Of a stretch of DNA of 64,000 nucleotides, positions 31,550-56,318 are shown one piece after another. Within the stretch, counting starts at the first letter, position 1, and every line of letters starts with the position of its first letter. The notes beneath the pieces are model-generated. The model did not search any database. It saw only the letters and a list, made by a program, of their open reading frames with translations, and was not told where the DNA came from. Both the position numbers and the translations under genes were made by a program. The stretch is from Defluviitaleaceae bacterium (GTDB lineage: Bacteria > Bacillota > Clostridia > Lachnospirales > WRAX01), in contig WRAX01000005.1 in the NCBI GenBank assembly GCA_009779935.1, positions 24,248 through 88,247 of the forward strand. The letters run 5' to 3'.

Positions 31550-31561
31550 AGCCAAATACAA

Positions 31562-31610
31562 AACACCATTACGGGGTTTGTCCGTCCCGCAATGGTGTTT
31601 TATATTTTTT
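31562..31610 (+). terminator. terminator; last core feature before the AT-rich island
   Basis: Arms AACACCATT-CGGG/CCCG-AATGGTGTT then T-rich tract. Confidence 0.6.
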
Positions 31611-31625
31611 GTAATTATCCCGTTA

Positions 31626-31889
31626 ATGGAGAAATTTCCAACCGAGAAAAAGATCGTTGCCCATTTTTTGACTATTCGCTATCCAGATGATGTAACTTGC
31701 AATTATTGTGGCCCTACAAAATTATATCCACTTAACAAAAGTATCAAGGTATTTAGGTGTAATGGTTGTACAAATAGCTTCTCCCCTCTCTTTGAAAAAT
31801 CATCAACAGACTTGCGTGAGTGGTTTTATGCCATATACCTATTTCTAAACGGTAAAAGGGGCGTTTCTGGCTTGCCAAATACAAAGTGA
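31626..31889 (+). pseudogene. IS1595-family transposase, N-terminal zinc-ribbon fragment only
   Basis: MEKFPTEKKIVAHFLTIRYPDDVTCNYCG...FRCNGCTNSFSPL...LREWFYAIYLFLNGKRGVS matches the IS1595 N-terminal pattern; the DDE domain is absent. Confidence 0.7.
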
Positions 31890-32199
31890 AATCGGTGTTG
31901 CCTACAAACAAGATGCCGCAATATGTAAAAATATTCATCATATTCTCGTTGTTGTTTGCGGCTTTTCTCGGGTGTCATAATGACTTGAATGTTAGATTGA
32001 TGTTGTCAAGGGTATTCCAAAAAACATTCAACGAAGATGGGAAAAATAAATTTGACTTTATAATATGAAAAACTAAGGCTTGACAAAAGAAGATAGCCTG
32101 TGATAACTTAAAAGGCAGCTATCTTGCGCTAACAAAAAAATTGCGTGTGGGTTAGCATAAGCTAACTGCAAGCAAAAAATAAATTTTTAGAGGTGTTTT

Positions 32200-33027
32200 A
32201 TGAACGACATTACGTTCGCATTTTTGTTGACCGCTATTGCGGGTACAGCAACAGGCTTGGGTGGTCTTGCCATTTTGTTCTTGAAGAAAGCAAGCAAAAG
32301 ATTTTTGTCCATTTGCCTTAGTTTTTCTGCTGGAGTTATGCTCTACATTTCTTTTGGTGAAATACTGTTAGAAGCGTTTGGAGACCTTGAATATGCCCTT
32401 GGTGATGGAGTGGGCTATTTGGTTGCAACAGTAGCGTTTTTTGTTGGCATACTCCTTGTTGCCGCAATAGACAAGCTTATTCCACATAATGATGAAATTG
32501 CTGAACTTGCCGATTATGCAGAGCAAGGCAACAGTGATAATGTTACTCAAAAAGAGAAAAAGGAATTAAAGCGCACAGGGGTTATGGCGGCGATCGCTAT
32601 CACAATACATAACTTGCCCGAAGGTATAGTTATTTTCATGGCGGCACTTCATGACCCTGCATTGGGCATAGCCATAGCTATTGCTATTATGTTGCACAAC
32701 ATTCCAGAGGGCATAGCTACTGCGGCTCCTATATATTACGCAACAGGCAGTAAGTTAAAAGCGTTTTTATTTGCTTTTGGTACAGGATATGTCCAACTGA
32801 TAGGCGCACTTATAGCATGGTTTTTGATGCGCAATGTATTTGACGATATGGAAGCTGTTTTCGGTATCGCTTTTGCTGTAGTGGCTGGTATTATGGTGTA
32901 TGTATCAATACATCAGTTATTGCCGGCGGCTAAAAAATTTGGAAAACATCATGCTGTAATGAAGTGGTTATTTGCTGGAATGGCGGTAATGGCGGTTAGC
33001 TTGGTTGCTCTTGAATTTGTTTTTTGA
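32200..33027 (+). CDS. zupT: ZIP-family zinc transporter
   Basis: 275 aa; paired HNLPEG/HNIPEG motifs (TIHNLPEGIVIF, MLHNIPEGIATA), 8 TM pattern. Confidence 0.85.
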   Translation: MNDITFAFLLTAIAGTATGLGGLAILFLKKASKRFLSICLSFSAGVMLYISFGEILLEAFGDLEYALGDGVGYLVATVAFFVGILLVAAIDKLIPHNDEIAELADYAEQGNSDNVTQKEKKELKRTGVMAAIAITIHNLPEGIVIFMAALHDPALGIAIAIAIMLHNIPEGIATAAPIYYATGSKLKAFLFAFGTGYVQLIGALIAWFLMRNVFDDMEAVFGIAFAVVAGIMVYVSIHQLLPAAKKFGKHHAVMKWLFAGMAVMAVSLVALEFVF

Positions 33028-33066
33028 TAGCTTTACTGTGTTGCTAATGGGAGGTCAATAAGCATT

Positions 33067-33663
33067 ATGCCTTGGTTTAGAAGCAACTATTTTAGGATCG
33101 ATACAAGGATTGTCGGAGTTTCTGCCTGTGTCCAGTTCGGGGCATTTTGATATAAGGACAGAGGGTAATCTAACCTTTATAATTGTGCTTTAATAAAAAA
33201 GCCATTCCAAAAGACAACCGCACTCTTGGTAATTGCTACTATTCCGCTTGTAGTCGTGACGTTGCTGTTTGAAAAGGCATATAGAATCATTGTTTTATAC
33301 GGTTCATCTATTGCCTTTCGGCTTTGTTATAACAGGCATTTGCGGTTTTGCCCGGCATATCTGGTTCCGGCAGTACCATCACGGCAACAATGGCAGGGGC
33401 ATAAACCGTGAAAGTGCCGCAAAGTTTTCATTCCTCATGTCTGTCCGGCGGCAATTGTAGCAATGGTATTTAGGGTTAGCTGCATAATTTCAGACCCGGA
33501 ATTACTTTCAGGGTTAAACTTTGTGAATTTAAGTTTGGGCTTTGTAACAGGGTATATGGCAATAAATATCATGTTGGATATCGCAAGAAAGGCAAAAGTT
33601 GAAATACTTTGCCTTTCTTGCGTTTTTGCGTTAGCTGTGCTGATTTTCTTTTTTAAGAAATAA
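33067..33663 (+). pseudogene. uppP: undecaprenyl-diphosphatase, degraded
   Basis: UppP segments lie in different frames separated by stops: [64 protein letters not shown]-terminal GFVTGYMAINIML. Confidence 0.8.
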
Positions 33664-33686
33664 GTGGATGTTTTGGAGGGTGCGCT

Positions 33687-33749
33687 ATGAAATCAAAAAC
33701 AAAGTTAACTGTGAGCATCTTTGGTGGCAGTAATGCTGTTGTTTGTTAA
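33687..33749 (+). CDS. 20-aa ORF, candidate short hydrophobic signalling peptide
   Basis: RBS GGAGGG 6 nt upstream; MKSKTKLTVSIFGGSNAVVC; lies about 250 nt upstream of the XRE-TPR regulator. Confidence 0.25.
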   Translation: MKSKTKLTVSIFGGSNAVVC

Positions 33750-33994
33750 GTTAAAAGATGGCCAAAATTGTGGCATGTGATTTATAACATCTTCTAAGTG
33801 ACCATTATGCAATATTGTTACACCAAATGATAAGCTGCATTAATAGCTTATGCATGCTCTTCCGCAAGGTGATGGAGTGTGGTGTAGTTGAAAATATTAG
33901 CTTTACTATCAGTGGCAAATATGATACAATATAAGTACAAAAAATTACAAAAAAACTGAAAATCCCCTATTTTATGGGGGAGGGGGGAGAAATT

Positions 33995-34917
33995 ATGAAA
34001 ATGTACATTGGTAAAATGGTTAAGAAGTTGCGCTCGGAAATGGGCATGAATCAAGAAGAATTAGCAGGACGGCTTTTTATGTCAAACAAGAGGCTTTCAC
34101 GTATTGAAACCGATAAGGCGAAGGTGGATGTTTGGCAAGCCATAAAAATATTAGAACTTGCCGGTCAATCTTTTGAAGATTTTTGGTTGATGCCCTTGGA
34201 TTCTTCTGATTATGACGGATACTTGATTTATCGAAATTTAAGAAAGAGTTTGCGTGATAATAACAATGCTGAAGCGGAAAGTTTTTTGGAGCAATTCAAG
34301 AAAAGTCCAATATCCAAAGAACCTTTTGCCCAGCAAACCATAGCATGGGCAGAAATTAGGCTAAACAACAATTTAAGCCATGAGAAGCCATAAAAAAATT
34401 ATATGAGGCATTGCGTATGTCAAACCCAGAGTTTGATGAATCCAAGATAGCCGAATACCGCTTACAACACCAAGAAATACGAATACTGATGAGCATCGCA
34501 GTGAGAAGTAACAAAATCGGTGACAAGGATAAAGCGATATACATAACGGAAGCCCTAATTAATAACAGGGAAAATCTCCGAACTTCGGAGGATGATAAAG
34601 CAAGCTTCCTGCCTGCGCTTTTGTTCAATCTGTCTAATTATCTTGGTCAAGCTGGTAAGATAAGAGAATCCTTGCAAGCTTGTGACAAAGGCTTAGAAAT
34701 TTGCCGTGAGTATAATCGCTTTGATCTTACACCAGTATTGCTACATAATAAGGCTACTAATCAACGCATGTTAGGAGAAGAAGAACGCATGTACAGAACC
34801 CATCTAATAAGAGCATATCATTCCGCAAATGCCATGGGTCAATTTGATGTGGCCGAAGAGGTCAAAAAAGATGCCGAAGAAAGCTTCGGCATCAACATCA
34901 TGAAGTTTTGGGATTAA
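33995..34917 (+). pseudogene. XRE-HTH + TPR regulator (RNPP-like architecture) split by a frame change
   Basis: HTH part (MKMYIGKMVKKLRSEMGMNQEELA...) stops at 34391-34393; the TPR part is open in the -1 frame from 34384 (EAIKKLYEALRMSNPEF...); together about 300 aa. Confidence 0.55.
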
Positions 34918-34922
34918 CTAAA

Positions 34923-35090
34923 TCAATTATCGCCATCCTCTTTATCAGGATGCTTGTAATTAAATGGTGCCATATTGCATCCTGAATATGAGTATGCAAT
35001 ATGATAATTTAGCGATGAAAATGACAGGACAATAACCGCCGCAACAAGGAGTGTAAAAATACGGCTGGCAATTTTTTTCATATTTTTCAT
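34923..35090 (-). CDS. 55-aa secreted pro-peptide-like ORF
   Basis: MKNMKKIASRIFTLLVAAVIVLSFSSLNYHIAYSYSGCNMAPFNYKHPDKEDGDN; basic N-region, hydrophobic core, single Cys, acidic tail; RBS AGAGGGA; below the track cutoff. Confidence 0.45.
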   Translation of the reverse strand: MKNMKKIASRIFTLLVAAVIVLSFSSLNYHIAYSYSGCNMAPFNYKHPDKEDGDN

Positions 35091-35150
35091 CAAATCCCTC
35101 TTTTCCAGTGTTTTTATACTAACCCATACAGGTTACCACATGCAAGCATC

Positions 35151-35212
35151 AAAATCCATACCGATTTTTGAGAAAAAACGACAATTTTTTCTCAAAAATC
35201 GGTATGGATTTT
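35151..35212. repeat. perfect 28-bp inverted repeat with 6-nt loop
   Basis: AAAATCCATACCGATTTTTGAGAAAAAA cgacaa TTTTTTCTCAAAAATCGGTATGGATTTT. Confidence 0.9.
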
Positions 35213-35279
35213 TGTTTAATTTTATGCTACATTTAGAATCCGCATACAATAAATCAACCCCTACGCAAAAGCATTGACA

Positions 35280-35460
35280 TTGGTCTTAGTTTCGGCAATA
35301 ACCCTGCCACCGGCAATGGCATCATGGATGTTGGCAGGATGAACTTTTATGTGGAGCAGCAGACGACCTTCAACCTTCTTACCCCCCAACAAATCCACTA
35401 AACTGCGTAGCGCATGCTGTCTTTACGCTTCGGGGGTCGATGATGGTGTAGTTAGGTTTA
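35280..35460 (-). mobile_element. IS5-family transposase remnant (left, inverted copy)
   Basis: Minus-strand translation gives NYTIIDPRSVKTA and GGKKVEGRLLLHIKVHPANIHDAIAGGR in different frames; 35280-35434 is the reverse complement of 37482-37636. Confidence 0.7.
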
Positions 35461-35544
35461 GACTTTTGACCAAGTTTAATTTCGCTTTTTTCACCACACT
35501 ACATGGATTTTTATCATCAAAACGAAAGTGAAGGGGGGGTGCAA

Positions 35545-37137
35545 ATGTTAAAAATTTTAAAAATAATACTAAAAGAGCCGTCATCTAAGATAATTTTGGC
35601 ACTTTATCCTTTAATCGCTTTGCTGTCGGGTATTTTGCTAGTATATAGCAATGATATGCTCAGAAATGTTTTCAACAACCACATAATGCTATTAGAGTTT
35701 AACAACTTTTTATATAGCACCCTGTTTGTAGTTGGACTATTTGTTTCATTATTCCTTTTAAGGGTTGTGAACTCATATATTAAAGAGAAACTTCATCATA
35801 CAGGTGCGAATAATTTAATTGAGCACTACACAAACAAACTACTAAAAGCAGACTATTCATACTATCACAAAAAAGAAGCACCAGCAATTTGGGATAAGTT
35901 AGAAAGGTCTACTATTGGTACAGGGAATTTCTTTGGGTCGCTCATAAGTTCTATTAGTACAATGATAAGTTTTGTTTTTTATGCAATTGTTATATTTAGA
36001 ATAAATTTATTTGCAGGATTGATAACAATGATAGCTATTCCTATTTATTTCTTTCTTACTGTCGGATTTAATAAAAATTTCATGTCCTTGCAGATGGAGC
36101 TGGCTAATAGCATGGGGCAACTGGCTGTGGTGGGTCAAGAACCTCTCGAAAATGTGGTGAACGTAAAAACAAAAAATGCATATGGTTTTTTTGTGAATCG
36201 AATAATGAAGATACAAAGAAAAATATCCAAACTGTTTCGTAAGTTCAATGTTTTGTCTGAATATCATAATGGCATAACGGGTCTTGTGTCTGTCGTTGTA
36301 CCCATCTTGGTATTATTTGCTACATTGCAGGTTTCGGACACATTTACAACAGATATGGGGACAGTGCTGATACTTTATATTAACATACCGCTGTTTTTAA
36401 GTGGATTTACAAGCATTTACAAGAAATATATTATGTACAAAACCCACAGACATTTCATAAACGGTCTCCTAGAATTTGACGATATGCCCATAGAACATAG
36501 CGGGGAGATAGAAATAAATGACTTTGAAAACCTAGAAGTAAAAGGGGTTAAGGTGCGCTTTGACGATACACGAATTATCAGTATTCCTGATTTCGTTGTG
36601 AAAAAAGGAGAAAGAGTAATGATATTTGGGGAGAGCGGAATAGGCAAATCAACCATCTTCAACATTATAGTTGGCATTCATACAGAATACGAGGGCGATA
36701 TAATAATTAACGGTATTAATTTGCGAAATATCAGCACCTATTCCTTGCGTAATGTTTTTGGTATCGTTTTACAATCTGTCAATATTTTCTCCATGTCACT
36801 GGAAGACAATATCTTGTTAGGCATTCCCAATGACAATTTGAATGAATCAGTTAGCCTTGCCAACCTTAAAGAACAAATGGATTTTAAGGTCGACCAGGAA
36901 CTAAATAACAAAGTTGTGTCGGGTGGCGAAAAATCGCGTGTTGGGTTAGCTCAGACCCTAGCTCGCAATACCCAAGTGTTGATGATAGACGAAACGTTTT
37001 CCAGTATAGATGAAGGAATGGAAGAGCGTATAGTTAAGGGGCTTTTTGAAATGCATCCACACAAAACCTTTATATGTATCAGCCATCGCAGTTCAAGCCA
37101 GACTTATTTTGATAAATTCGTGGACTTCAATTTATGA
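35545..37137 (+). CDS. ABC exporter, fused TMD-NBD half transporter
   Basis: ATG 35545 after RBS GAAGGGGGGG; 5-6 TM then Walker A GESGIGKST, signature VSGGEKSRVGLA, Walker B VLMIDETFSSID; no N-terminal C39 peptidase domain. Confidence 0.85.
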   Translation: MLKILKIILKEPSSKIILALYPLIALLSGILLVYSNDMLRNVFNNHIMLLEFNNFLYSTLFVVGLFVSLFLLRVVNSYIKEKLHHTGANNLIEHYTNKLLKADYSYYHKKEAPAIWDKLERSTIGTGNFFGSLISSISTMISFVFYAIVIFRINLFAGLITMIAIPIYFFLTVGFNKNFMSLQMELANSMGQLAVVGQEPLENVVNVKTKNAYGFFVNRIMKIQRKISKLFRKFNVLSEYHNGITGLVSVVVPILVLFATLQVSDTFTTDMGTVLILYINIPLFLSGFTSIYKKYIMYKTHRHFINGLLEFDDMPIEHSGEIEINDFENLEVKGVKVRFDDTRIISIPDFVVKKGERVMIFGESGIGKSTIFNIIVGIHTEYEGDIIINGINLRNISTYSLRNVFGIVLQSVNIFSMSLEDNILLGIPNDNLNESVSLANLKEQMDFKVDQELNNKVVSGGEKSRVGLAQTLARNTQVLMIDETFSSIDEGMEERIVKGLFEMHPHKTFICISHRSSSQTYFDKFVDFNL

Positions 37138-37140
37138 TTA

Positions 37141-37800
37141 GAACCCACTTTCAATAAAAGTCCTGTTTGTAGTGGGTGGCCTGCAGGTGCTTGCGAGTAA
37201 CTCAGAACCCGTTTTCAATAAATCCCCAATCCTGCCGATATACAATGATAAACAGGATGTGAAAACATATGAAATATCGCACCAAATACCCAATGACCTT
37301 ACCGCCAAGCAATGGAGCTCCATAAAACACTTATTCGAGAAAGGAAATCGTGGCAGTCATTTCCGTACACATAGCAAGCGAAAACTTGTTGATGCCGCAC
37401 TTTACCTTAACAAGGCTGGATGCCATTGGAGGCAGTTGCCAAAAGATTTTCCTAAGTGGCAGACTGTGCATTCATTCTGCTCCCGAAGCGTAAAGACAGC
37501 ATGCGCTGCACAGTTTAGGGGATTTGTTGGGGGGTAAGAAGGTTGAAGGTCGTCTGCTGCTCCACATAAAAGTTCATCCTGCCAACATCCATGATGCCAT
37601 TGCCGGTGGCAGGGTTGTTGCCGAAACTAAGACCAAATACCCCACAGTCAAGGGTATTGTTGGTGGTGCCGGTTTTCGTGGCACTTTCAAGAAAGCCCCA
37701 GAAGCGATCTTAGTGAATTTGATTTTGGCTTTGGAGTTTTCGGCAAAAAGAACCCCCCACAAATCGGCGGCCCCGGCGGCGGCAACTGGACTATAATACC
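37141..37800 (+). mobile_element. IS5-family element remnant with internal deletion (right copy)
   Basis: N-terminal domain LTAKQWSSIKHLF...LYLNKAGCHWRQLPKDFPKWQTVHSF joins directly to RSVKTA; later KKVEGRLLLHIKVHPANIHD in another frame; two GAACCCnnTTTCAATAAA copies at 37141 and 37205. Confidence 0.7.
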
Positions 37801-37979
37801 AGGACCACCCAGTGGAGGAGCAGGAGAGCCGATAGAATTGACTTAGCAACAAATAAAAATTAGTCCCAATAATCTTTACATACAAGCCAATTATCACAGG
37901 AACCAGTATTTAATAATTTCCTAAAAATAGTCATGTAGCAACAAATAACCAATCTCAATATATTCAAGGAGGAATCGCA

Positions 37980-39341
37980 ATGAAAACAAAAATCCCCAAA
38001 ACCATCACAATCCTAACTCTACTAACACTAACCATGGTCTTCTATGCCTGTGGGGGTACCGAAGTAGAGTGTGGATACAACGACGACGATATCGGCAATT
38101 ATAATGATTATAAAGCCAAACATGACTATGCGTACATAAGCATACAACCCACAGAAGACGAACTTAGACATCAAGTATCACAACTTTTGATTGAAGACCT
38201 GGAATTACTTTACAAAGATATGCGTTCAAACATTATGGCTCTTTCAAATGCAGTGTATAGACGAACCCAGCACGAAGTAGGGTTTGGCATTGATATTTGG
38301 AGAAGCATGAGGCGGATTATTGAAAATCTTGAAACTGGAAGCGTGCAGTTTGGTGCAGGTGTGACGGATTTTGACGAGATGCTTGCGGCCGGCTCGCAGC
38401 ATATAGTTAGTCGATTGAATTTTTAGGTCATAACACATCTGGCCTACTGCATCTTGGGGCATCCACCGAGGGCTTTGCGGGAATTGGGTGGGATGACCAC
38501 TATGGGTCCATACTCGTCCGTCCGTTAAGAACATATCAATCCATTCAAGAAATTGATACTTCATTCAACCCCTAGGCATGGCACCAGCAAAAGCTTAATA
38601 AGTGGCAATATTGCGTATTTAAGAATAGAATCTGCTTTAAATATAGATTTAGACAGAAATAATTTAATGCAATTTTATGAAGAAATACAGAATTATAGCC
38701 ATCTCATTATTGATATAAGAAATCATATGGGAGGGCATTATTTTCATTTTGCTGACGTGGTAATGAGTCCACTTATAGAAAGTGCCGTTCATGCAACGTA
38801 TTATCAATTTTTTACAGAAGGAGAGCACCGTGCTTGGCAAATGGCAAATGTGGATGCATTGTGGGACGAATTCTATGAAATGGGTTGGCGCACTATGGAA
38901 GTTACGAATTACGAAGCTTCCGTATTTGTATCAGAAAATAACATGATATATTTTAACGAAAGTGATTTGGGCTATCTATCCTATGCCACAAGATTCCGAT
39001 ACACAATTCATCCTTCGTACACAAATTTTCCTTTCAGAGGCAAGGTGTGGTTGTTGATTGACGGCGCACAATCAGCAGGAGTAGGGGCTGCCATATATGC
39101 CGAAACATCAGGATTTGCAACAACGGTGGGCAGACCAACAGGTGGCGTTACACATGCGGAACGAACTTATTTGAGATTGCCAAACTCTGGGGTGTATGTA
39201 CATGTAGATGTAGGTTATATCGTAGATGCCAATGGCCGCTCTGTGGTAGAATTTGGATGGCCACCCCAAATACCCAGCCGCCCGGGCTTGGATGCTTTGC
39301 AGACCGTACTTGCTTTGATACAGGAGGGCTATGGGCAATAA
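37980..39341 (+). pseudogene. S41-like peptidase lipoprotein, disrupted by frame changes
   Basis: Lipobox MVFYAC; three pieces in frames 0/2/0 (37980-38426, 38426-38575, 38553-39341); C-terminal piece has IIDIRNHMGG and aligns with the intact paralogue at 47308. Confidence 0.6.
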
Positions 39342-39547
39342 AAAATCAGAAAATTATCGGGGACTGGTTCTTGGTGCTTACAGTCCGTTCATTTCAAAAA
39401 ACAAAATTGAAGAGGAATGAGGTGTGTCAATTTTTCAAAAATTCCTTCTGATATTTTAGGGTGGTAGGTGTTGGGCCGAGCGGTTATGTGAGCATGATTG
39501 GATAATTTTGAGATTTGTAGGCATAAAACAGAAAAAGGGGTGAAGTC

Positions 39548-40954: not shown

Positions 40955-40956
40955 CC

Positions 40957-42530: not shown

Positions 42531-42572
42531 TCATTAATTCATTTGAATGTTTACGGATCAGTTGTACTTGAA

Positions 42573-42886: not shown

Positions 42887-42901
42887 TTTGGAGGATGTAA
42901 A

Positions 42902-43117
42902 ATGGAAAAGAGTTTAGATACAGCAAACTCAATAACATCTATCATCGACTTGATTTGGGAGGTAGATGACGTAGCAGAAGTGGTTGTGCCAATGATGAAC
43001 AAGGCTTGCATAGGCAATAGTTGCAGCATGAATACAAGGTCTCCACAAAATCCTCCCGCTTCCACCTTGGGCGGGTCCTCAAGGTGCATTAAATCCACAA
43101 AAAGGAGTGGCGTTCAC
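42902..43117 (+). CDS. Cys-rich precursor peptide 2, no stop codon before the next gene
   Basis: RBS GGAGG; MEKSLDTANSITSIIDLIWEVDDVAEVVVPMMNKACIGNSCSMNTRSPQNPPASTLGGSSRCIKSTKRSGVH runs in frame into the lipoprotein ATG at 43118. Confidence 0.6.
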
Positions 43118-44539: not shown

Positions 44540-44604
44540 ACTAAGGGATTCTAAGAGGAGTATAGGGTTAGCTAAATTTTACTTACACTAAGGAGGAATT
44601 GAGT

Positions 44605-44793
44605 ATGGACTTAAAAAAGATTGAAATTTTGATTACACCGGTCATCGACCTTATATGGGAAGTTGATATTATTGAAAACACAGAATTTTTGCCAACCAAC
44701 ATGGTTGTAACTTGCATGGATATTAGTTGTGGTGGTTTTGGTCTTGTTTGTGGGGGTTCCTGGAAAACCCCCATGTGTCGCCCGTTAGGTTAA
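44605..44793 (+). CDS. Cys-rich precursor peptide 3 (62 aa)
   Basis: RBS AAGGAGG 8 nt upstream; MDLKKIEILITPVIDLIWEVDIIENTEFLPTNMVVTCMDISCGGFGLVCGGSWKTPMCRPLG. Confidence 0.7.
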   Translation: MDLKKIEILITPVIDLIWEVDIIENTEFLPTNMVVTCMDISCGGFGLVCGGSWKTPMCRPLG

Positions 44794-44885
44794 TGTTACA
44801 AAAGTAGTTTAACTTTTTGGAGCAAAACCCTATACTACTCTGGGATCTAATAACTTCAAAAACTTCGAGCAACGGAGGTTTGGGA

Positions 44886-46260
44886 ATGAAGCTTATAAGG
44901 CATGTAATTCCAGTGGACATAAACAGTGAAGAAAAGCTGATGATTAACTCCTTAAACGGTATTATTGATAAAATTAGTGTACCTGTTTATGAAATCTTTC
45001 GAAAGTGGAGAGGGGTTGAGGAGATAGTTCCCGAATGCGAGGTGGAGGTCGCCTTATTTGAAAGCCTCAAAATGCGTGGGTATCTATCAAATAGCTCAAA
45101 AGATGAGGATGTTGTGAAAGAGAAACTTGTAGCTCGCTTACGGGAAATAAGCACCAAGCAAAGAGAGGCGTGCAGGAGCATCACCTTTATCCCTTCATAT
45201 AACTGCAACTTCCGATGCCCTTATTGCTTTGAAGGAGAAAACACTCTTAAAAAGGGAAATTATGACACCAGATCAAGTGGATGCCGCATTAGAATTGGCT
45301 GGTGAAAACTTGGAAAGCGTGGGGTTTTTTGGTGGAGAGCCTTTGTTGGCATCCAATAAAAAAATATTAGAATATATTATATCAAAAACCAAAGGGAAAA
45401 CTTTTAGTATCACCACCAATGGATATCACTTGGAGGAGTTTTTTGAAATCTTGTCACCACTAAAATTTTCTGAAATCTTGGTTACACTGGATGGAGGAGA
45501 GGACACTCACAATAGTCGTAGGTTTTTGGTGGGCGGCAAACCGACATATAGCAAAATTTTGAAGGGTATTGAAAAGTGCCTGTCAAATGGCATGCCCATA
45601 TGCATTAGGATGAATCTGGAAAGTAGTAATCTGGAAGAAGGTCAACTCTTGCAACAAGAACTTATGAATAGATTCCAAAAGCATGGAGGATTGGTTTCAT
45701 TTGAAATGGGAACCATTTTTGGAATACCCGAAGAAGACAAAGTAAACATTCTCACCCAGCTATATAAAACAGATGCTATATGTTCGCCAGAAGAAAAGCG
45801 AAAAAGAAATAGCATGGTGGGTAGATTTAATCCCATAATAAATAGCATGACCATAGGCACAAAGCTACGACCAACATACTCATTTTGCTCCGCTCACATA
45901 AGCAGCTTCATTGTTGATCCCTATGGAATGATATATGCCTGTCTCCCATCAGTCGGCAAACCCACCCTATCCATCGGCACATACTACCCCAACATCGAAT
46001 TTAAAGAAAAAAGCATTTACACCCGCAATATAGAAACAATCTCCGAATGCAGAGAGTGTGTCTATTCATTACTTTGTGGCGGGGGTTGCCCTTTGGGAGT
46101 TATGAGATGTGAAGATGATATAATGAAACCGGAGTGCTTCTCCATTAAAAACCAAGTGCATAACATATTGCCCAGGTTTTACAACATTAACGAAGATGCT
46201 AAAAATAAAAACAAAGAAACCAAAAACCAAAACCAGCCAGCAAAAGCTTGTTCTTTGTGA
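44886..46260 (+). pseudogene. radical SAM/SPASM peptide maturase 2, 1-nt frameshift
   Basis: CNFRCPYC lies in the frame of ORF 44817-45305; GGEPLL and the SPASM pattern (ECRECVYSLLCGGGCP) lie in the +1 frame of ORF 45229-46260; switch within 45236-45260. Confidence 0.8.
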
Positions 46261-46285
46261 TTAAGATTTTAAGTGGAGACTACCT

Positions 46286-47266
46286 ATGATGACAAACGCC
46301 CTAATATTAGCTGACATTGAAGGTATCATCGGTGTTAATGAAACATTTGGTGATAATGCCGGTGAATTGTTCACACAAGAAGTGGAGCTATGTATCAATG
46401 TCCTGTTGGAAAACGGCATCCACAAAATCACTGTTTGCGATGCCCATAACAAGGGGGACATGATTTTACCCAGAATTACCGAGGGGCGTGATAATGTCAA
46501 GCTGGTTTCGCAAGTCCGCAGTGTTTGTTTTGCAGAAAAGTATGACTTTGCAATAATGGTTGGATATCATGGAATGGAAGGCAGCCCCGGCATTTGGCCC
46601 CACACATACCGCTATGATATTAAGCAGACTTCTATTTTCGATAAAAGATTAGGAAAAAACATTCCCATTGGCGAGGTGGAGATTGGTGCCAGATGGCTGG
46701 GCTTTCATGGTGTGCCGGTTATTTTTGTATCTGGTGATAGAGAGGCGGCTTACGAAGCCAATCAATTCAACCCATACAGACAAGCTTCTTGTATAAGAAC
46801 ACTCCTTCAAACCGAAGAAATAAAGATTGAAGTTTTGCGTGATAAATTAGTGCAAGATCTCAAATCATCTTTAAAATTGGACTGGGATTTATGCTTGTCC
46901 TGTGATAATAGTCCCATTCTGGTTGAGTTTTACCACTCTGAAACCGCTGATGCCTTAGTGGCAAAGGGATATACCAAATTCATCAACGTAGATGGCAGCG
47001 AGGGCATCACATTCAAAAGCTGTTCTGAACTTGTTAGCGAAATCCATCACATAGCCGGCCTCTTAAATCAAATCGGATTTGAGGTGGAAACCGCCAACAT
47101 CGCTTTCTTAAAAGAGGTACGTGAATTAGCTAAAAATCTTGATAAAGATGCAGTTGCAAATTCGGAGGCCGGGCCACTACTTAGCACCAGCCTTACCCTG
47201 TTGGACAAGGTGGCTCGTGATAAAGTTATGGTGATTTTGAGGAGTATGGTGAATGGAAGTGTATAA
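46286..47266 (+). CDS. M55-family D-aminopeptidase (DppA-like)
   Basis: LADIEGIIG, VCDAHNKG, MVGYHGMEGSPGIWPHT and IGEVEIGARWLGFHGVPVIFVSGD align with B. subtilis DppA motifs as I recall them. Confidence 0.8.
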   Translation: MMTNALILADIEGIIGVNETFGDNAGELFTQEVELCINVLLENGIHKITVCDAHNKGDMILPRITEGRDNVKLVSQVRSVCFAEKYDFAIMVGYHGMEGSPGIWPHTYRYDIKQTSIFDKRLGKNIPIGEVEIGARWLGFHGVPVIFVSGDREAAYEANQFNPYRQASCIRTLLQTEEIKIEVLRDKLVQDLKSSLKLDWDLCLSCDNSPILVEFYHSETADALVAKGYTKFINVDGSEGITFKSCSELVSEIHHIAGLLNQIGFEVETANIAFLKEVRELAKNLDKDAVANSEAGPLLSTSLTLLDKVARDKVMVILRSMVNGSV

Positions 47267-47307
47267 ATCAATCCCCCAACACCCCAACCCGAAAGGTGGT
47301 AAATTAA

Positions 47308-48726
47308 ATGACAAAAAACAAAAACAAAAACATCAACCCAATAGCCCGCACCGGCCTCTTAGTTCTGGCGATGGTTCTTTTTCTATTAATACCCACAAGT
47401 TGCGGCAGCCAAAACAATGAAGATGAAACCCGTTTTGTCTTAGAGTCCGACTGCCCTTATCTTTACGACTTCCATTACTTAATACGGCTTATGGAGGATA
47501 CATTTCCTCACTTTGGTGTAGTGTATAGAAATTTTGGAGTGGATGTGAGACAACTGGCAGATGAAGCCATGGAGCGCATCGCAAACCATCCTGGTATGGA
47601 CGACAATATTCTTTTTGATGAAATTGCAGACCTTTTTATTCCACTTTTACCAGTTGTTCATGCGCAGCCCTTATTCTACCAGACCTTTCCACTCTGGAAA
47701 TACAGATTTGGAGGAGCTGGCGTAGGGCAACTAATAAGCGAAGGTAGTGCATTCAATGCAAATACTTTTAACAATGTGCGTTCAATAGAATTTTATGAAC
47801 GCCAAAGGCAAGCCGGATGGGACATGACACCACAAACGGAAGAAGCGTTCGCTTTGCGACCTGCTATACACACTGACCTTGATAATTTTCCTGTACAACC
47901 CGCATGGAATCGAATAGCAGCCACCTATATAATCGAAGAAGGCAGAATTGCTTATATGAACATACCTACTTTTATGCATCATGGCGCAGGCGGAATAGAA
48001 AGGGGAAGTTTGTTTAATTTCTACACAGAAATACAGGATTACGAGCACCTTATTATAGACATTAGAAATAATGGAGGTGGATATACCTTTTTTTGGGAAA
48101 ATAATATCATGCTACCACTATCGAACAATGCGCCCGTTGTACCAATATATAACTTTTTCCCCCAAAGCGAACGTGGCTTAAAGTTTGCACAAATTTTTGC
48201 TGATGACCACTACCAGAAAGGTATAGGAGCAGATTTGGTGACCTCAGAGTCATTTTCTGCCAATTATGCATATCCTATATCTATATCAGAGTTTTTAAAT
48301 GATAGGCAATTTCCATACCTAAACCAATCCGACCTACAATACTTAGGATATGTGGTCCCACTTACCCAAAGTGTAAGAAATCTAAACCCCATGTGGTATG
48401 TGCCGGAAATACCTTTCCATGGTCAAATATGGCTTTTGATAAATCCCGTAAACGCTTCATCTGCCAGCATGTTTGCCCGCCACGCCAAAGATTCTGGTTT
48501 TGCCACTTTGGTGGGGGAGCAAACAGGTGGACATTTTGGTGCTGGGACACTTCGTATTTTCTTCCCCCTACCCAACACAGGCATTATTGTAACTTGGGAT
48601 GTAGGCTACAAAACCGACCAATACGGAAGATCATGGGAAGAATTTAGAGTAATGCCCCACCACCAAAACATGCCTGGTATGGATGCGCTTGAAACTGTGC
48701 TTTTTCTTATTAATGAAGGGTATTGA
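47308..48726 (+). CDS. S41-like peptidase lipoprotein (intact copy)
   Basis: Signal/lipobox LLIPTSC; IIDIRNNGGGY, NASSASMFA, GEQTGG motifs of C-terminal processing peptidases. Confidence 0.75.
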   Translation: MTKNKNKNINPIARTGLLVLAMVLFLLIPTSCGSQNNEDETRFVLESDCPYLYDFHYLIRLMEDTFPHFGVVYRNFGVDVRQLADEAMERIANHPGMDDNILFDEIADLFIPLLPVVHAQPLFYQTFPLWKYRFGGAGVGQLISEGSAFNANTFNNVRSIEFYERQRQAGWDMTPQTEEAFALRPAIHTDLDNFPVQPAWNRIAATYIIEEGRIAYMNIPTFMHHGAGGIERGSLFNFYTEIQDYEHLIIDIRNNGGGYTFFWENNIMLPLSNNAPVVPIYNFFPQSERGLKFAQIFADDHYQKGIGADLVTSESFSANYAYPISISEFLNDRQFPYLNQSDLQYLGYVVPLTQSVRNLNPMWYVPEIPFHGQIWLLINPVNASSASMFARHAKDSGFATLVGEQTGGHFGAGTLRIFFPLPNTGIIVTWDVGYKTDQYGRSWEEFRVMPHHQNMPGMDALETVLFLINEGY

Positions 48727-48880
48727 TTGAGTAGGTGTGGGATGATGAATTGAACTCCAAAATTATACCACTATGTAAGTGGGTACTGACTTTATCGCTT
48801 ATGCCATGGTATAATTCCGTTAAATTCTATGAATGCAAATATACTTAATATTAAGAATATAGTCACGGAGGCCAAACCCC

Positions 48881-50707
48881 ATGAAACCCCTAACCCTCTG
48901 CAAACCCTATCTACTGCAACATAAATTAAAACTAACCCTATACATAACAATAACCCTATTAGCCACTGCCATATCCATCCTAACCCCCTTCATCATAGGT
49001 AACTTCCTTGATCACCTAATCGAAGGGGGTGATGTGGGGGCTATTTTGCGTTTTTGTGCAATATTTGGTGGGTTGGGGCTTTTGCGTATATTCAAAAACT
49101 ACATAACATCCCTTATATACGTTAGGATGCAAACCCAGATGAGTTACAACTTTCACCATGATATCACAAAACACATCCAAAGCCTTTCACTCTCCTACAC
49201 CAACAATCAAGACAGCACCTATCTAAACCAACGCATAAATAGTGACACAGGCAGCCTGATTGTATTCTGCATAACCATCCTTAACAACGTACTGGTAAAC
49301 CTAATTATGATTATTGCACCCTTTATCATACTGCTAACCATGAACTGGTTTATTACGGTTTTATTGGCCGGCTTTCTTTTGTTATATGCCGTCTTATATA
49401 CGGCCTTCAAAAAACCCATTTACAATGCAGGGTTTCGCTTAAAAGAAGCGCAGGGTAAGTTTTTCTCCACCCTTTTTGAACAATTAAAACACATCAAACT
49501 CATTAAAACAAACTCCATACAGCCCGAAATTAGCCGTAGGACTGATAGTGGATTTGTAAGATTTAAGGCGGCAGCTGTTCACAACCAAAAAGTAAGTTAT
49601 GTGTACTCCGGTATGGATGGATTTATATCCACACTCGCACAGATCGCCTTATTTGTGGTTGGTGGCTTGCAGGTGCTGTCCGGTAATTTCACCATAGGTA
49701 TGTTTACCATCTTTACCAGTTACTTTACCATGATTTTGGGTTCCAGTAGATATTTCTTTGGCCTTGGGGCTTCTTATCAGCACACCCTTGTCGCTTATGA
49801 TCGGGTCAAGGAAATATTGAACCTTAAACCCGAGGGTGGGGGTAGAAAGATAATTGACAGTGTTAGCAAGATACAAGCAACTGACCTAAGTTTTTCTTAT
49901 GCGGTTGGAGATACGAGCCACAGTTTAAGTCAAGACCAAAAAGAAAGGCGAGAAGGAAACAACCGGAAAAAAGATGACCCTCACGAGGGCATTAACTCAC
50001 ATAATATCAAAAATCATAATCCAGCCCTAAATTTCAACGAAACAGGCAGCACTACCAAAGCGAATCCTAAGGTGAACGACATCATCGAAACAAAGCGAAA
50101 AAGGGTTCTTGAAGGACTTAGTATAGAACTAACCAAGGGTAAAATTTATACCCTATCCGGCTCAAATGGCTCGGGCAAGTCCACGCTTATCAGTTTAATG
50201 ATGGGTATGTATGCTGATGAATATGATGGCCGTATAACCTATGACGGCACAGATATTAAAGACATAGACATGATTGCCGCAAGAAGAAGCCTTATTGGAT
50301 TTGCAGAGCAAGAACCTACACTGATAAAAGATTCTATTTTGTTTAACCTTTGTTTTAATGAGTCGCTCGATTCTCTTTGTTCATCAAACCAACGCATCAA
50401 CAATCTGGACAAGCATATGCAAACCCTTGGGATGAATGATTTTATTGATAAAAACGGATTGCATTTCCCGCTAAACGAAAGCAATACCAACACCTCCGGT
50501 GGAGAGAAGCAAAAAATATCCATCTTAAAGGTACTGTTAAAAGACCCACCTGTTATGATTTTTGATGAGCCTACATCTGCACTTGATTCTGATGCCACCG
50601 AAAGGTTTATGGGATATTTGCAGGGTATTAAAAGTAATAAGATTATTGTTATAGTTACGCATGATGGGGTTGTGGAGGAGATGTGTGATGAGAGGGTTTG
50701 TTTGTAA
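48881..50707 (+). CDS. ABC exporter (TMD-NBD) with a hydrophilic insertion at the start of the NBD
   Basis: 6 TM; Walker A GSNGSGKST, signature TSGGEKQKISILK, Walker B VMIFDEPTSALD; no C39 domain. Confidence 0.85.
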   Translation: MKPLTLCKPYLLQHKLKLTLYITITLLATAISILTPFIIGNFLDHLIEGGDVGAILRFCAIFGGLGLLRIFKNYITSLIYVRMQTQMSYNFHHDITKHIQSLSLSYTNNQDSTYLNQRINSDTGSLIVFCITILNNVLVNLIMIIAPFIILLTMNWFITVLLAGFLLLYAVLYTAFKKPIYNAGFRLKEAQGKFFSTLFEQLKHIKLIKTNSIQPEISRRTDSGFVRFKAAAVHNQKVSYVYSGMDGFISTLAQIALFVVGGLQVLSGNFTIGMFTIFTSYFTMILGSSRYFFGLGASYQHTLVAYDRVKEILNLKPEGGGRKIIDSVSKIQATDLSFSYAVGDTSHSLSQDQKERREGNNRKKDDPHEGINSHNIKNHNPALNFNETGSTTKANPKVNDIIETKRKRVLEGLSIELTKGKIYTLSGSNGSGKSTLISLMMGMYADEYDGRITYDGTDIKDIDMIAARRSLIGFAEQEPTLIKDSILFNLCFNESLDSLCSSNQRINNLDKHMQTLGMNDFIDKNGLHFPLNESNTNTSGGEKQKISILKVLLKDPPVMIFDEPTSALDSDATERFMGYLQGIKSNKIIVIVTHDGVVEEMCDERVCL

Positions 50708-50922
50708 AGAATGGCAAGCGTGGCGGTGTTAGATGCACAGACCACATCCCCAACTCAATGCCTCACCTCAGAACCCAAACTTGATGTCCACGCCCACGCC
50801 GTGTTTTGTGTGGGCTTGGTATCAGTAGTTATACCCATAGATACACCGCATTATAATGCTTCTTTTTGTATTGTCTTTGACAGCACTGGATAACATTGAT
50901 TGAAATTTTCAGCATGGATATA

Positions 50923-51156
50923 CTACCGGTCATCAACCTGTAGTATATCCACAGCACCCTTAACAATATCGCAAACATCCCACAAGGTGTCGCAGTCCAA
51001 AACTTCCAACACTTTATACTTACGGCTTGAAAGGTCAACGGCTCGCACTTGATCACAAAGAACATACCCTGTTGTAGCAGTTTTTGTTAGCTTCACATGC
51101 ATGATGTTTTTTCTGTATGTGTTGGTTATTGGGCATATATAACGGAAATTGAACAT
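50923..51156 (-). pseudogene. MazF/PemK-type toxin, C-terminal fragment
   Basis: HVKLTKTATTGYVLCDQVRAVDLSSRKYKVLEVL resembles the MazF C-terminal half; the N-terminal half is missing. Confidence 0.5.
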
Positions 51157-51321
51157 TTATCAAACTTTGAAATTTTAAGGTAGGCCATACTCAACTTGGG
51201 AAATATACCGTGCCGCCTTAATCGACTTTTCGACTTGTAAAAGGCATCAGAAGTTATTTATTGAGATTATTGACAACCTAAACATTGAAGCCGAACAAGT
51301 AAAGGCATAATAAAAAACGCA

Positions 51322-51376
51322 GCAACTTCTGATACTGTTTGCTATTAACCGCAAACAGTATCAGAAGTTGCTTTTC
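51322..51376 (+). terminator. strong terminator at the right edge of the island
   Basis: Perfect 21-bp arms GCAACTTCTGATACTGTTTGC/GCAAACAGTATCAGAAGTTGC, 8-nt loop, then TTTTC. Confidence 0.7.
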
Positions 51377-51538
51377 TATTCAAAACCACATTTAGCGAAC
51401 AGGTCTAATGCAGTTGTTGCATTTTGTTAAAAATCCTGCGAAAAGAGGGACTGTAAAAGACTAATATTCTCACAGCATTGTCATCACTAACATAAAATGT
51501 ACAAGGAGCTTTCTTGCAGGATAGGGCATTTGCCTTTT

Positions 51539-52372: not shown

Positions 52373-52463
52373 TAATTTGTATAACGCCCCATTTTGAGAC
52401 AAGAACCCTTTTGCATATACAAGCATAGTATGTACTACAGTCAAGAAAAAGGCTGAAAACACA

Positions 52464-52988: not shown

Positions 52989-53040
52989 GGCAGCAACCAA
53001 CACTTTTTTGAAATTTGTCTTGCAAGGAGGTGAAATAGAA

Positions 53041-56291: not shown

Positions 56292-56318
56292 GTTCGCAAG
56301 ATATATGGTGGAGGATTG

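Follow-up and report, generated by a model that had tools for sequence, protein, structure and literature searches.

The region from 31.6 to ~51.4 kb of the window (the whole stretch of 64,000 nucleotides analysed here, from a termite-gut Defluviitaleaceae bacterium) most likely represents an accessory island carrying one RiPP biosynthetic cluster, probably acquired horizontally and now non-functional, and the adjoining 51.4–55.9 kb is similar in composition. A decaying accessory island in such a host is fairly ordinary; its peptide family is undescribed. As judged from their predicted products, the lesioned genes belong together in one RNPP-regulated RiPP cluster with three precursor peptides, which was missed by the first-pass annotation of this DNA, and the island appears to hold a dead member of an rSAM-RiPP family that is uncharacterised. 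Unless stated otherwise, genes are on the + strand.

Composition and extent of the AT-rich block

The first-pass annotation had proposed an AT-rich island at 31605–51390, and the fall in composition was confirmed. Its example counts were exact (14 G+C at 36001–36060 and 30 at 7801–7860), likelihood segmentation placed a GC change point at 31,590, as compared with the proposed start of 31,605, and GC was 0.387–0.402 within the low-GC block versus 0.455–0.465 outside. The GC and k-mer comparison that it had suggested set the island apart from its flanks by GC, dinucleotide and tetranucleotide signatures alike: Karlin delta* was 110–165 x10^-3 in island windows versus 20–53 x10^-3 in flanks, tetranucleotide correlations were 0.77–0.79 island-to-flank versus 0.97 flank-to-flank, GC3 was 0.395 versus 0.487 (p = 5e-9), and arginine codon usage in the island differed from that in the rest.

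The left edge is marked by a hairpin terminator (31554–31607; 22-nt arms, -23 kcal/mol) after a 444-aa host gene, followed, as the earlier annotation had it, by an IS1595-type transposase stub (31638–31772) that retains only the Zn-ribbon (PF12760, E = 1.5e-6) inside ORF 31482–31889. The right boundary is ambiguous, lying at 55.9 kb by GC and dinucleotides (compositional edge ~55,900, beyond the earlier 51,390) and at 51.4 kb by GATC density and a terminator. The observed/expected ratio of GATC was 0.26 in the island versus 0.05 in the core, a roughly five-fold higher density. Eighteen of the 19 GATC sites in the low-GC block fall within 31,652–51,051, so that the earlier end may still represent a sub-segment boundary; between 51.4 and 55.9 kb, one site was observed against ~4 expected, a contrast that is not significant by itself. 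The terminator (51321–51372; 22-bp perfect stem, bidirectional, -37 kcal/mol) is the one that had been taken as the right end. Close to it, a MazF/PemK toxin relic (50923–51156, - strand), correctly described as a stub, covers only profile positions 39–103 of 109, with a stop-ridden N-terminal third, amid ~950 bp of non-coding debris. A 40-codon ORF tail reported at 51195–51310 contains stops in the frame given, and an open stretch of ~43 codons was found in a neighbouring frame.

Beyond this terminator, a second low-GC segment (51662–55270) encodes two DUF6385 proteins, a His-rich ORF and a SunS-like GT2-TPR glycosyltransferase; its dinucleotide signature is island-like, it holds one GATC site, and no lesions were seen in it. 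At the right compositional edge lies an nrfA (cytochrome c552) relic in two fragments (55548–56194, - strand), followed by a hairpin (56250–56293) and the end of pheT. The relic is real, but it had been counted as a lesion of flanking housekeeping DNA, whereas it lies on the margin of the low-GC block. The flank genes proved full length, those with a Pfam domain having full profile coverage in every case, yet a further low-GC patch at 22,261–25,950, around an intact IS110 gene, indicates that the flank is not made up of housekeeping DNA alone.

Mobile-element debris and rearrangements within the island

Both IS5-like remnants noted previously were recovered. One (37172–37796) comprises a DUF4096 N-terminal part and a frameshifted DDE fragment; the other, a 155-bp fragment (35280–35434, - strand), is the inverted partner of 37482–37636, with arms that are 97 % complementary. 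They bracket an intact ABC exporter ('a', 35503–37137) with the lowest GC of the window (0.34–0.35), which is unrelated to the usual exporter of the cluster and was therefore probably brought in secondarily. Upstream, a palindrome with 28-bp perfect arms (35151–35212) forms a bidirectional terminator (-39.8 kcal/mol). An inverted fragment of ~170 bp (33693–33864, - strand) is a copy, at 87–96 % identity, of part of the lipoprotein 'B' gene 10 kb away (43695–43860), representing a rearrangement scar at which Logan contigs break. The left part of the island also encodes an intact ZIP-family metal transporter (32200–33027; GC3 0.355) that holds a GATC site, and, in several frames, a possible uppP/BacA relic (33226–33663); the degraded uppP gene claimed previously is hinted at by one match to a BacA motif (E = 0.009, short of the Pfam cut-off).

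Gene content of the predicted RiPP cluster

The RNPP-family regulator gene (HTH + TPR/RNPP_C, 33974–34917) is followed by a convergent 56-aa ORF (34923–35093, - strand) with a signal-like N terminus and an acidic C terminus (…KHPDKEDGDN). By its position, this ORF is a candidate secreted pro-pheromone of the regulator, and the related cluster L089 has a positional counterpart of 52 aa. RNPP_C scored 24.4 bits in the regulator fragment, just below the Pfam cut-off of 26.5 bits, and the repaired 314-aa regulator aligned end to end with intact homologues of 303 and 310 aa.

Three precursor or precursor-like genes share the leader motif IIDL[IMV]WE[VP][DE], and no curated family covers these peptides. 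PreA (42630–42815, 61 aa) has a good RBS, the leader …SIIDLMWEPEE and a six-Cys core, and PreC (44605–44793, 62 aa) combines the leader …PVIDLIWEVD with a five-Cys core. PreB (42902–43117; …SIIDLIWEVDD) is without its own stop codon and continues in frame into the lipoprotein 'B' gene, yielding a 545-aa gene model in the NCBI MAG. PreA is flanked by 28-nt inverted repeats (42571–42598 and 42861–42888), each arm of which contains an ATRGGGTT box, a motif that lies upstream of precursor genes and has the wrong orientation in front of PreB.

Two rSAM/SPASM maturase genes, rSAM-a (39548–40954) and rSAM-b (44886–46260), would encode different partner enzymes rather than duplicates, a distinction also missed previously: rSAM-a is 45–54 % identical to its a-type partners in clusters L091 and L089, rSAM-b 54–66 % identical to its b-type partners in L087, L089 and L091, and the two types share only ~25 % identity. 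Other Defluviitaleaceae contigs carry intact versions of the cluster, which in two cases adjoin recombinase or integrase genes. L087 reads RNPP (310 aa), S41, MA lipoprotein (490), precursor (63), rSAM-b (444), M55; L091 reads precursor, rSAM-a (462), rSAM-b (438), M55, ABC; and L089 reads regulator, convergent ORF, precursor, rSAM-a (split in this cluster), rSAM-b, ABC.

The remaining genes encode predicted peptidases and an exporter. Lipoprotein 'A' (40951–42530) belongs to clan MA (HEVVH…EEGF). Lipoprotein 'B' (43118–44539) is open, with its own RBS and lipobox, and is probably catalytically dead, as ALLAH…RHG replaces HExxH…EEG. Across 42 members of this lipoprotein family HExxH is at least 90 % conserved, Peptidase_MA_2 matches were obtained for 5 of the 42, and an AF2 model (pLDDT 85) had M1 aminopeptidases as its best structural match. 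The M55 peptidase gene (DppA-like D-aminopeptidase family, 46286–47266; 69 % identity to its L087 counterpart) and the S41 peptidase 'b' gene (47308–48726; lipoprotein-like N terminus) are open, and ABC exporter 'b' (48881–50707), with a ~60-aa insert and 52 % identity to the L089 exporter, is the cognate exporter of the cluster.

Next to the lesions and gene content, which are directly visible, the working of an intact cluster can be proposed from homology and gene context. The RNPP-type regulator would sense the small secreted peptide encoded convergently just downstream of it and turn on the precursor genes, whose products combine the conserved leader with a Cys-rich core. The a- and b-type rSAM/SPASM enzymes would then cross-link the core, extracytoplasmic or accessory peptidases (the clan-MA HExxH lipoprotein, S41 and M55) would remove the leader, and the ABC transporter would export the product.

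Gene lesions and their reproducibility

Broken genes were concentrated in the island (5 of 14, versus 0 of 32 in the flanks; Fisher p = 0.0015), as had been claimed, and the share of bases in long stop-free stretches was 0.73 versus 0.88–0.91. All five point-type lesions were confirmed. The split XRE-TPR gene is the RNPP regulator, with a net -1 frameshift at 34384–34393 beside an A7 run. The split S41 gene ('a', 37980–39341) carries in-frame stops at 38424 (TAG) and 38526 (TAA). The nonsense-mutated rSAM is rSAM-a, with a single TGA at 40214 replacing a conserved Arg where homologues read HLERR; the frameshifted rSAM is rSAM-b, with a net +1 frameshift near an A5G3 run (45249–45256), between the CNFRCPYC (Fe-S) and GGEPLL (SAM-binding) motifs, intact homologues being 438–450 aa long. 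The MA-like gene, lipoprotein 'A', has a net -1 frameshift at ~41956–41964, just upstream of its HExxH (HEVVH) motif. The lesions have broken the regulator and the two maturases, along with one S41 peptidase and the sole HExxH-bearing lipoprotein, and PreB lacks a stop; the cluster therefore cannot make its product here. The scattered gene fragments and IS debris likewise bear out the earlier view of ongoing decay.

A chimeric metagenomic join, or frameshifts arising as sequencing or assembly errors at homopolymers, could in principle produce such a picture, given that the source is a metagenome contig, that the three frameshifts lie at A7, A5G3 and G4/T3 runs and that the available assemblies may share the same or related libraries. 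We regard this as highly improbable. At least four assemblies (ENA, Logan, JGI and NCBI-MAG) carry the same lesions, contigs of three different assemblers cross the left junction and the covered lesions at 99.9–100 % identity, and the gene models of the NCBI MAG match. JGI contigs (99.9 % identical) showed zero differences at the lesion sites they cover, namely those of the regulator, S41-a and rSAM-a (L005) and the rSAM-b frameshift (L003). Moreover, three lesions (38,424, 38,526 and 40,214) are substitutions that create stop codons, and the motif loss in lipoprotein 'B' required several substitutions, in agreement with the earlier argument that assembly indels cannot explain all of the lesions. 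Homopolymers of such short length are not known as typical sites of Illumina errors. Hardly more probable is a still functional cluster, in which the interruptions would be regulatory (phase-variable tracts, programmed frameshifting or stop read-through) or would split genes into working subunits, with expression in part of the population. The homopolymers at three interruptions could slip, PreA, PreC, M55, S41-b and ABC-b are open with good RBSs, and the split a-type rSAM of L089 offers a parallel. Yet even the longest tract (A7) is short, and no tract-length variant occurred in the 99.9 %-identical JGI contigs at the regulator and rSAM-b frameshifts. The rSAM-a TGA falls on a conserved residue, and 13 of 41 genes use TGA as an ordinary stop. 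S41-a carries two further stops, the rSAM-b split parts the CxxxCxxC motif from the remaining barrel, the zinc site of lipoprotein 'B' is gone, and a working cluster would need five independent switches to be ON together.

Origin of the island

Loss of function in an island of foreign origin remains our preferred reading, although horizontal acquisition, which the first-pass annotation had likewise proposed, is well supported yet itself inferred. The support is a foreign signature, comprising the compositional measures given above, GATC density and codon use, together with a dinucleotide signature matching the one that clusters of this family have in other genomes; related intact clusters adjoin a serine recombinase in one case and an integrase and a DDE transposase in another. 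Alternatively, the locus may be native, old and vertically inherited, its AT-richness and odd signature having arisen in place via relaxed selection and AT-biased mutation after inactivation. We consider this unlikely, if clearly less so than the readings discussed above. It would fit the frequency of homologous clusters in Defluviitaleaceae MAGs, the evident decay and the poorly defined right end of the low-GC block, and no integrase, tRNA gene, att site or flanking direct repeat was found delimiting the island. However, the open and apparently conserved M55, S41-b, ABC-b and ZIP genes share low GC3 and foreign codon usage with the broken genes, the dinucleotide difference persists after normalisation for composition, GATC is enriched although absent from the core DNA of relatives, and IS remnants lie exactly at the left edge. 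The nearest genomes, where presence or absence of the island at this site would be decisive, have a GlgB identity of only 75–81 % and no synteny; the junction protein had no homologue above 48 % identity.

Comparison with known systems

Decaying genomic islands and pseudogenised biosynthetic clusters of host-associated bacteria are characterised by deviant composition, IS and toxin–antitoxin debris, clustered pseudogenes and rearrangements. The block described here shares these traits (deviant composition, IS and toxin debris, clustered pseudogenes and internal rearrangements), differing in the absence of the delimiting elements mentioned above.

Streptide and other RaS-RiPPs of streptococci are under Rgg/SHP control (PMC9389541, PMC13361665), and Rgg/SHP-controlled rSAM RiPPs have been reviewed (PMC9389541). 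As in those systems, a cytoplasmic RRNPP-type HTH-TPR regulator adjoins a small peptide gene, with a short precursor, rSAM/SPASM maturase(s) and an exporter nearby. Unlike them, the host is a termite-gut Defluviitaleaceae bacterium, the regulator, likened to Rgg by gene context, gives a weak match to RNPP_C, two distinct maturases per cluster occur with MA, S41 and M55 peptidases, the precursors fall outside curated models, and the window carries a dead copy.

In thuricin CD biosynthesis, TrnC works together with TrnD in a complex (PMC12093266), and thuricin-CD-like clusters include genes for an ABC transporter and for a C-terminal protease (PMC3132745). By gene content, the present cluster resembles these in its two different adjacent rSAM genes, Cys-containing precursors, S41-type C-terminal protease and ABC transporter, and the a- and b-type enzymes may pair as TrnC and TrnD do. 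In contrast, a single precursor, not a two-peptide pair, occurs in its intact relatives, the leader and core follow other patterns, and the published thuricin CD cluster descriptions (PMC12093266, PMC3132745) include no counterpart of the M55 peptidase or the MA lipoprotein.

The best NCBIfam matches of both rSAM proteins were RiPP maturases (PapB, Clo7bot, CefB and SCIFF), with CteB (5WGG) as the nearest solved structure (E = 5e-16 for the b-type). Like CteB/SCIFF and PapB (TIGR03974, NF047865), they have CxxxCxxC and C-terminal SPASM Cys motifs and Cys-rich substrates; the precursors are not SCIFF peptides. Scores were far below all curated family cut-offs (62–119 bits versus 340–425 bits), indicating that the enzymes are not members of the CteB/SCIFF or PapB families. 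Since both are CteB-like, thioether-type links would be the most likely chemistry.

Extent and base composition of the low-GC block

Likelihood segmentation of the window placed GC change points at 31,590 and 55,900, with a GC content of 0.39-0.40 inside the block and 0.455-0.465 outside. The first-pass annotation had described an AT-rich island ending at 51,390; the G+C counts of the two sequence lines that it quoted proved exact on recount and its left edge coincides with the first change point, while the position of the right edge depends on the measure applied. GATC density and a strong terminator (51,321-51,372) place this edge at ~51.4 kb, in agreement with that annotation, whereas GC content and dinucleotide usage place it at ~55.9 kb. 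The low-GC block may comprise two adjacent accessory segments. The stretch 51,662-55,270 holds an intact module, likewise of low GC content, which encodes two DUF6385 proteins, a His-rich 164-aa ORF and a GT2-TPR protein. No paper on DUF6385 was found in a literature search. The GT2-TPR protein bears a sub-threshold similarity (E = 6e-24) to peptide S-glycosyltransferases of the SunS type.

Both base composition and oligonucleotide signature were shown to deviate from the host core, as judged by GC content, Karlin delta*, tetranucleotides, GC3, GATC frequency and codon use. Relative to the flank reference, delta* amounted to 110-165 x10^-3 in all 4-kb bins from 32 to 56 kb, compared with 20-53 x10^-3 in the flanks. 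Tetranucleotide correlations were 0.97 between the two flanks and 0.965 between the two island halves, as opposed to 0.77-0.79 between island and flank. GC3 was 0.395 in the island versus 0.487 (p = 5e-9), and AGA accounted for 31% of Arg codons in the island versus 8% in the core. A second low-GC patch with an island-like signature (22,261-25,950; GC 0.398) contains an intact IS110-family transposase gene (23,507-24,703, reverse strand) and two ORFs of unknown function with very low GC3, and is probably another import.

GATC avoidance as a host signature

The host core (1-31,590 and 55,900-64,000) was found to contain seven GATC sites (O/E ~0.05), and none was observed in core loci of related contigs (L007, L008, L095 and L087), where 27-84 would be expected. 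GATC avoidance appears to be lineage-wide in these Defluviitaleaceae, and perhaps results from restriction pressure. Eighteen sites are located at 31.6-51.4 kb (O/E 0.26; Poisson p = 6e-7) and a single one at 51.4-55.9 kb. GA/TC is strongly depleted in the host core (rho 0.61), with the same tendency in core loci of related MAGs (0.73-0.75), as compared with 0.84-0.89 in all low-GC segments of the window and in related RiPP clusters elsewhere. Near-total GATC avoidance combined with GA/TC depletion thus represents a simple, GC-independent marker of recent imports in these uncultured termite-gut bacteria. Other host-core dinucleotides are also unusual (AA/TT 1.34, CC/GG 1.33 and GC 1.43); relatives L007, L008 and L095 display a milder form of this signature, and accessory DNA does not carry it.

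A RiPP cluster with two radical-SAM maturases

The island genes form one RiPP cluster. Three short ORFs encoding precursor peptides (PreA, PreB and PreC) are preceded by good Shine-Dalgarno sites, and share the leader (S/P)IIDL(I/M/V)WE(V/P)(D/E), followed by Cys-rich cores. The motif IIDL(I/M/V)WE(V/P)(D/E) recurs in peptides encoded on three other termite-gut contigs (L087, L089 and L091), where the same peptide family adjoins homologous enzymes, so that short precursors that join a conserved leader to a Cys-containing core are encoded next to maturase genes at all four loci. None of the precursors matches a curated family. PreA (42,630-42,815) is uncalled in the ENA assembly annotation, despite its canonical ribosome-binding site and family leader motif. 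The L087 cluster encodes an intact RNPP regulator, an S41 peptidase, a 490-aa lipoprotein, a 63-aa precursor, a b-type rSAM and an M55 protein; that of L091 a precursor, a- and b-type rSAMs, an M55 protein and an ABC exporter; and that of L089 a regulator, a convergent 52-aa ORF, a precursor, a- and b-type rSAMs and an ABC exporter.

The two maturase pseudogenes of the window, rSAM-a (a-type) and rSAM-b (b-type), exhibit the motifs CNMSCSYC…CKKCPYKFVCLGCC and CNFRCPYC…CRECVYSLLCGGGC, respectively, and both carry the CxxxCxxC radical-SAM motif together with C-terminal SPASM Cys motifs. Their Pfam matches are Radical_SAM and Fer4_12, and the top NCBIfam matches of both are exclusively rSAM/SPASM peptide maturases (PapB, Clo7bot, CefB and SCIFF). 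Their best scores, 85 bits for rSAM-a and 119 bits for rSAM-b, compare with cut-offs of 340-600 bits and place them far outside the curated maturase families (PapB, SCIFF/CteB, CefB, Clo7bot and CcpM, among others); CteB is the nearest solved structure. All-against-all comparison revealed two co-occurring rSAM orthogroups, with a- and b-type genes side by side in L091 and L089, indicating that the window rSAMs are partners and not duplicates. Recent tandem duplication of one module was rejected, given paralog identities as low as 26-39% and the assignment of the rSAMs to separate orthogroups, which are found together in intact clusters.

In gene content, the cluster resembles that of thuricin CD, in which TrnC and TrnD constitute a cooperating rSAM pair (PMC12093266) and whose relatives additionally encode a C-terminal protease along with an ABC transporter (PMC3132745): two distinct rSAM maturases, an S41-type protease and an ABC exporter are likewise present here. 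However, thuricin CD derives from a two-peptide precursor pair, whereas intact relatives of the window cluster encode a single precursor. A literature search retrieved neither RiPPs combining rSAM and M55 enzymes nor Defluviitaleaceae biosynthetic clusters.

Peptidases and predicted regulation

The lipoprotein paralog LipoA displays HEVVH…EEGF, i.e. an HExxH motif with a downstream Glu as zinc ligands. A word-indexed search retrieved few members of this lipoprotein family, and an exhaustive profile search 148 representatives. Conservation among 42 family members is at least 90% for H316 and H320 and complete for G339. Pfam yielded no match for the window copies; five of the 42 relatives match Peptidase_MA_2 (best E = 8e-8). 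Structure prediction with AlphaFold2 was unusable from four sequences (pLDDT 32) and reached a pLDDT of 85 from 42, and the top PDB matches of the latter model are all M1/M61 gluzincins, at weak similarity (E at least 1.7e-3, TM ~0.3). The conserved HExxH, the Peptidase_MA_2 matches and the weak but exclusively M1/M61 model matches support the earlier designation of this gene as 'MA-like'. The M55 protein matches DppA of B. subtilis.

The window regulator matches HTH_3/HTH_19, though its chain is broken, and its C-terminal fragment matches RNPP_C below the 26.5-bit cut-off (E = 2.3e-5, 24.4 bits). The intact 310-aa regulator of L087, which matches RNPP_C without a flag, aligns over its full length with the repaired protein of the window, at 42% identity. 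A convergent 56-aa ORF follows the regulator gene, as does the 52-aa ORF at the same position in L089; it exhibits a signal-like N-terminus and an acidic C-terminus, and its lone family match is to Phr_nterm (E = 0.25, non-significant). This ORF is a candidate for the pheromone of the regulator. In several clusters, a conserved box ATRGGGTT(G/A) was identified 30-40 nt upstream of precursor start codons (window, 42,571-42,598/42,861-42,888 and 44,560-44,580; L089, ~6580; L087, ~9700). Two copies make up a 28-nt inverted repeat around PreA, and the copy ahead of PreB is reversed. The box may serve the RNPP regulator as an operator or promoter element.

Homology and gene context suggest that the ancestral system would have been a peptide-pheromone-controlled operon, for which RaS-RiPPs under Rgg/SHP control provide a precedent (PMC9389541). 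Its product would be a cross-linked, Cys-rich peptide that is subsequently trimmed and exported. Thioether cross-links installed by the rSAM pair represent the likeliest predicted chemistry.

Lesions in the cluster

Broken genes were shown to be concentrated in the island, as had been noted from the sequence alone: they account for 5 of 14 genes there and for 0 of 32 in the flanks (p = 0.0015), and all flank genes with a Pfam domain display full-length profile coverage. The HTH part (33,974-34,393) and the TPR/RNPP_C part (34,411-34,917) of the RNPP regulator lie in different frames, owing to a frameshift at 34,384-34,393 beside an A7 run; once repaired, the 314-aa protein aligns end to end with intact homologues of 303 and 310 aa. 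The peptidase gene S41-a contains TAG at 38,424 and TAA at 38,526 within an otherwise continuous frame. In rSAM-a, a single TGA (40,214) takes the place of an Arg (HLERR) that is present in both a-type homologues. LipoA carries a net -1 shift at ~41,956-41,964, directly upstream of HEVVH. In rSAM-b, the reading frame shifts by a net +1 close to an A5G3 run, between CNFRCPYC and GGEPLL; repaired rSAM-b is covered over 95-98% of its length by intact homologues of 438-450 aa. The frame of LipoB is open, but ALLAH…RHG replaces the HExxH…EEG of the family, removing the zinc ligands, and PreB lacks a stop codon and reads on into LipoB. With its regulator, its two maturases and the catalytic MA peptidase all disrupted, the pathway is dead in this genome.

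TGA recoding in rSAM-a, either as selenocysteine or through an alternative code, was rejected, as TGA terminates 13 of 41 intact genes and the homologues encode Arg. The a-type rSAM of L089 (8611-10,004; also in L090), a related cluster from the same metagenome, was observed to be split as well (147 + 317 aa). A minor deletion or a frameshift interrupts it, at a position different from that in the window, which suggests that loss is recurrent in this cluster family.

Relics and borders

Rearranged fragments occur throughout the island. A 170-bp fragment of the LipoB gene is inverted at 33,693-33,864, and the exporter gene ABC-a, which has the lowest GC content of all genes and is unrelated to the usual exporter of the cluster, is bracketed by 155-nt IS5 fragments that are 97% complementary. 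Mobility genes at or inside the borders are represented by remnants, none of them intact: an IS1595 stub marks the left edge, IS5 is represented by two fragments, and a MazF relic lies at ~51 kb. The IS1595, MazF and nrfA relics reported previously were all recovered; the reported uppP relic was weakly supported. Scans of the whole window yielded no tRNA gene and no Rfam match, no significant flanking direct repeats were detected, and no integrase is encoded among the window ORFs, i.e. no integration hallmark was found.

Three long hairpins (31.55, 51.32 and 56.25 kb) were considered as a shared integration repeat and discarded, their sequences being unrelated. A perfect palindrome with 22-bp arms (56,250-56,293; -39.7 kcal/mol) separates the nrfA relic from the stop codon of pheT, and is probably a shared bidirectional terminator. 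A Uma2-family gene, encoding a putative restriction endonuclease (58,720-59,334, reverse strand; GC 0.40), lies between the normally adjacent pheS and pheT.

Origin of the island

Horizontal acquisition is the best reading of the island, as its signature is distinct, internally coherent and common to the same cluster family in other genomes, its GATC density is far above what the lineage tolerates, IS debris marks its left edge, and a recombinase or integrase adjoins related clusters. Of the proposal that an acquired island is undergoing decay, decay is borne out by the lesions, and import is something we infer, since the window lacks an integrase, a tRNA gene and att repeats, and the relatives are too distant for a presence/absence comparison. 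In a species-level collection, two termite-gut Defluviitaleaceae MAGs came closest, with GlgB identities of 81% and 75%, and neither has neighbouring genes in common with the window. For the 444-aa host protein encoded at the left junction by FWE21_02735, a metagenome scan returned no match; its best homologues (44-48% identical) occur in other contexts.

A native locus that had drifted towards AT in place would account for low GC content, and is disfavoured by the open genes, which share the foreign codon usage, and by a signature that persists after normalization for base composition. The lesions could alternatively reflect assembly or sequencing errors. However, ENA metagenome contig ERZ27257297 k141_1640169 (105 kb) and Logan contigs of SRR5215140 are 100% identical to the window, and JGI 3300010369 contigs are 99.9% identical, the sole differences being a few clustered SNPs. 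Among the latter, L005 covers the lesions of the regulator, S41-a and rSAM-a, and L003 the rSAM-b frameshift, in each case without a difference from the window; NCBI lists the same proteins for a Defluviitaleaceae MAG, under locus tags FWE21_02735 to _02805. The lesions thus recur with different assemblers, the samples being possibly related, and since some of them are substitutions, an artefact is disfavoured, in keeping with the first-pass annotation, which had argued that assembly indels cannot explain all lesions. Nonsense codons, the loss of a motif and the requirement for five simultaneous reversions argue against phase variation or programmed recoding, by which the genes would be reversibly silenced or read through.

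The feature is a decaying accessory island with a dead member of an undescribed rSAM-RiPP family, which confirms the original observation overall and corrects its extent. As a genomic feature it is ordinary: an accessory island that, on the reading preferred here, was brought in from elsewhere, underwent rearrangement by IS elements and is now falling apart. Its ORFs should be marked as pseudogenes, and no working bacteriocin-like cluster should be credited to this MAG. The comparison defines a coherent, uncharacterized rSAM-RiPP family, marked by its leader motif, its pair of maturase orthogroups and its peptidases of the MA, M55 and S41 types. We would only tentatively go further, to a dead copy of an undescribed RiPP class in which IIDLIWE-leader Cys-rich peptides are served by an obligatory, divergent rSAM/SPASM pair, processed by an unusual peptidase set (a clan-MA lipoprotein of a rare kind, an enzyme of the M55 'D-aminopeptidase' family and S41), controlled by RNPP quorum sensing, mobile among termite-gut Defluviitaleaceae and repeatedly inactivated (in the window and L089). 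If this doubtful reading were true, the presence of M55 would point to D-residues in the product or to atypical trimming of its N-terminus. The intact clusters of L087 and L091 provide templates that could be expressed to find the chemistry.

Several minor observations concern individual genes. Other gene callers choose different start codons for the 473-aa lipoprotein and the 597-aa GT2-TPR protein. The second exporter gene, ABC-b (48,881-50,707), encodes a ~60-aa low-complexity Ser/Asn/Lys-rich insert near the start of the ATPase domain, compared with homologues of 547-553 aa. In the cultured species Alkaliphilus transvaalensis and Proteinivorax tanatarense (L093, 7589-7708; L094, 7654-7773), a solitary homologue of the b-type rSAM, 47-50% identical, adjoins the gene for a 39-aa peptide with CCAC at its end (MKMK[PS]I[IV]..GWNLQ…), and such loci may represent a simpler relative of the system.
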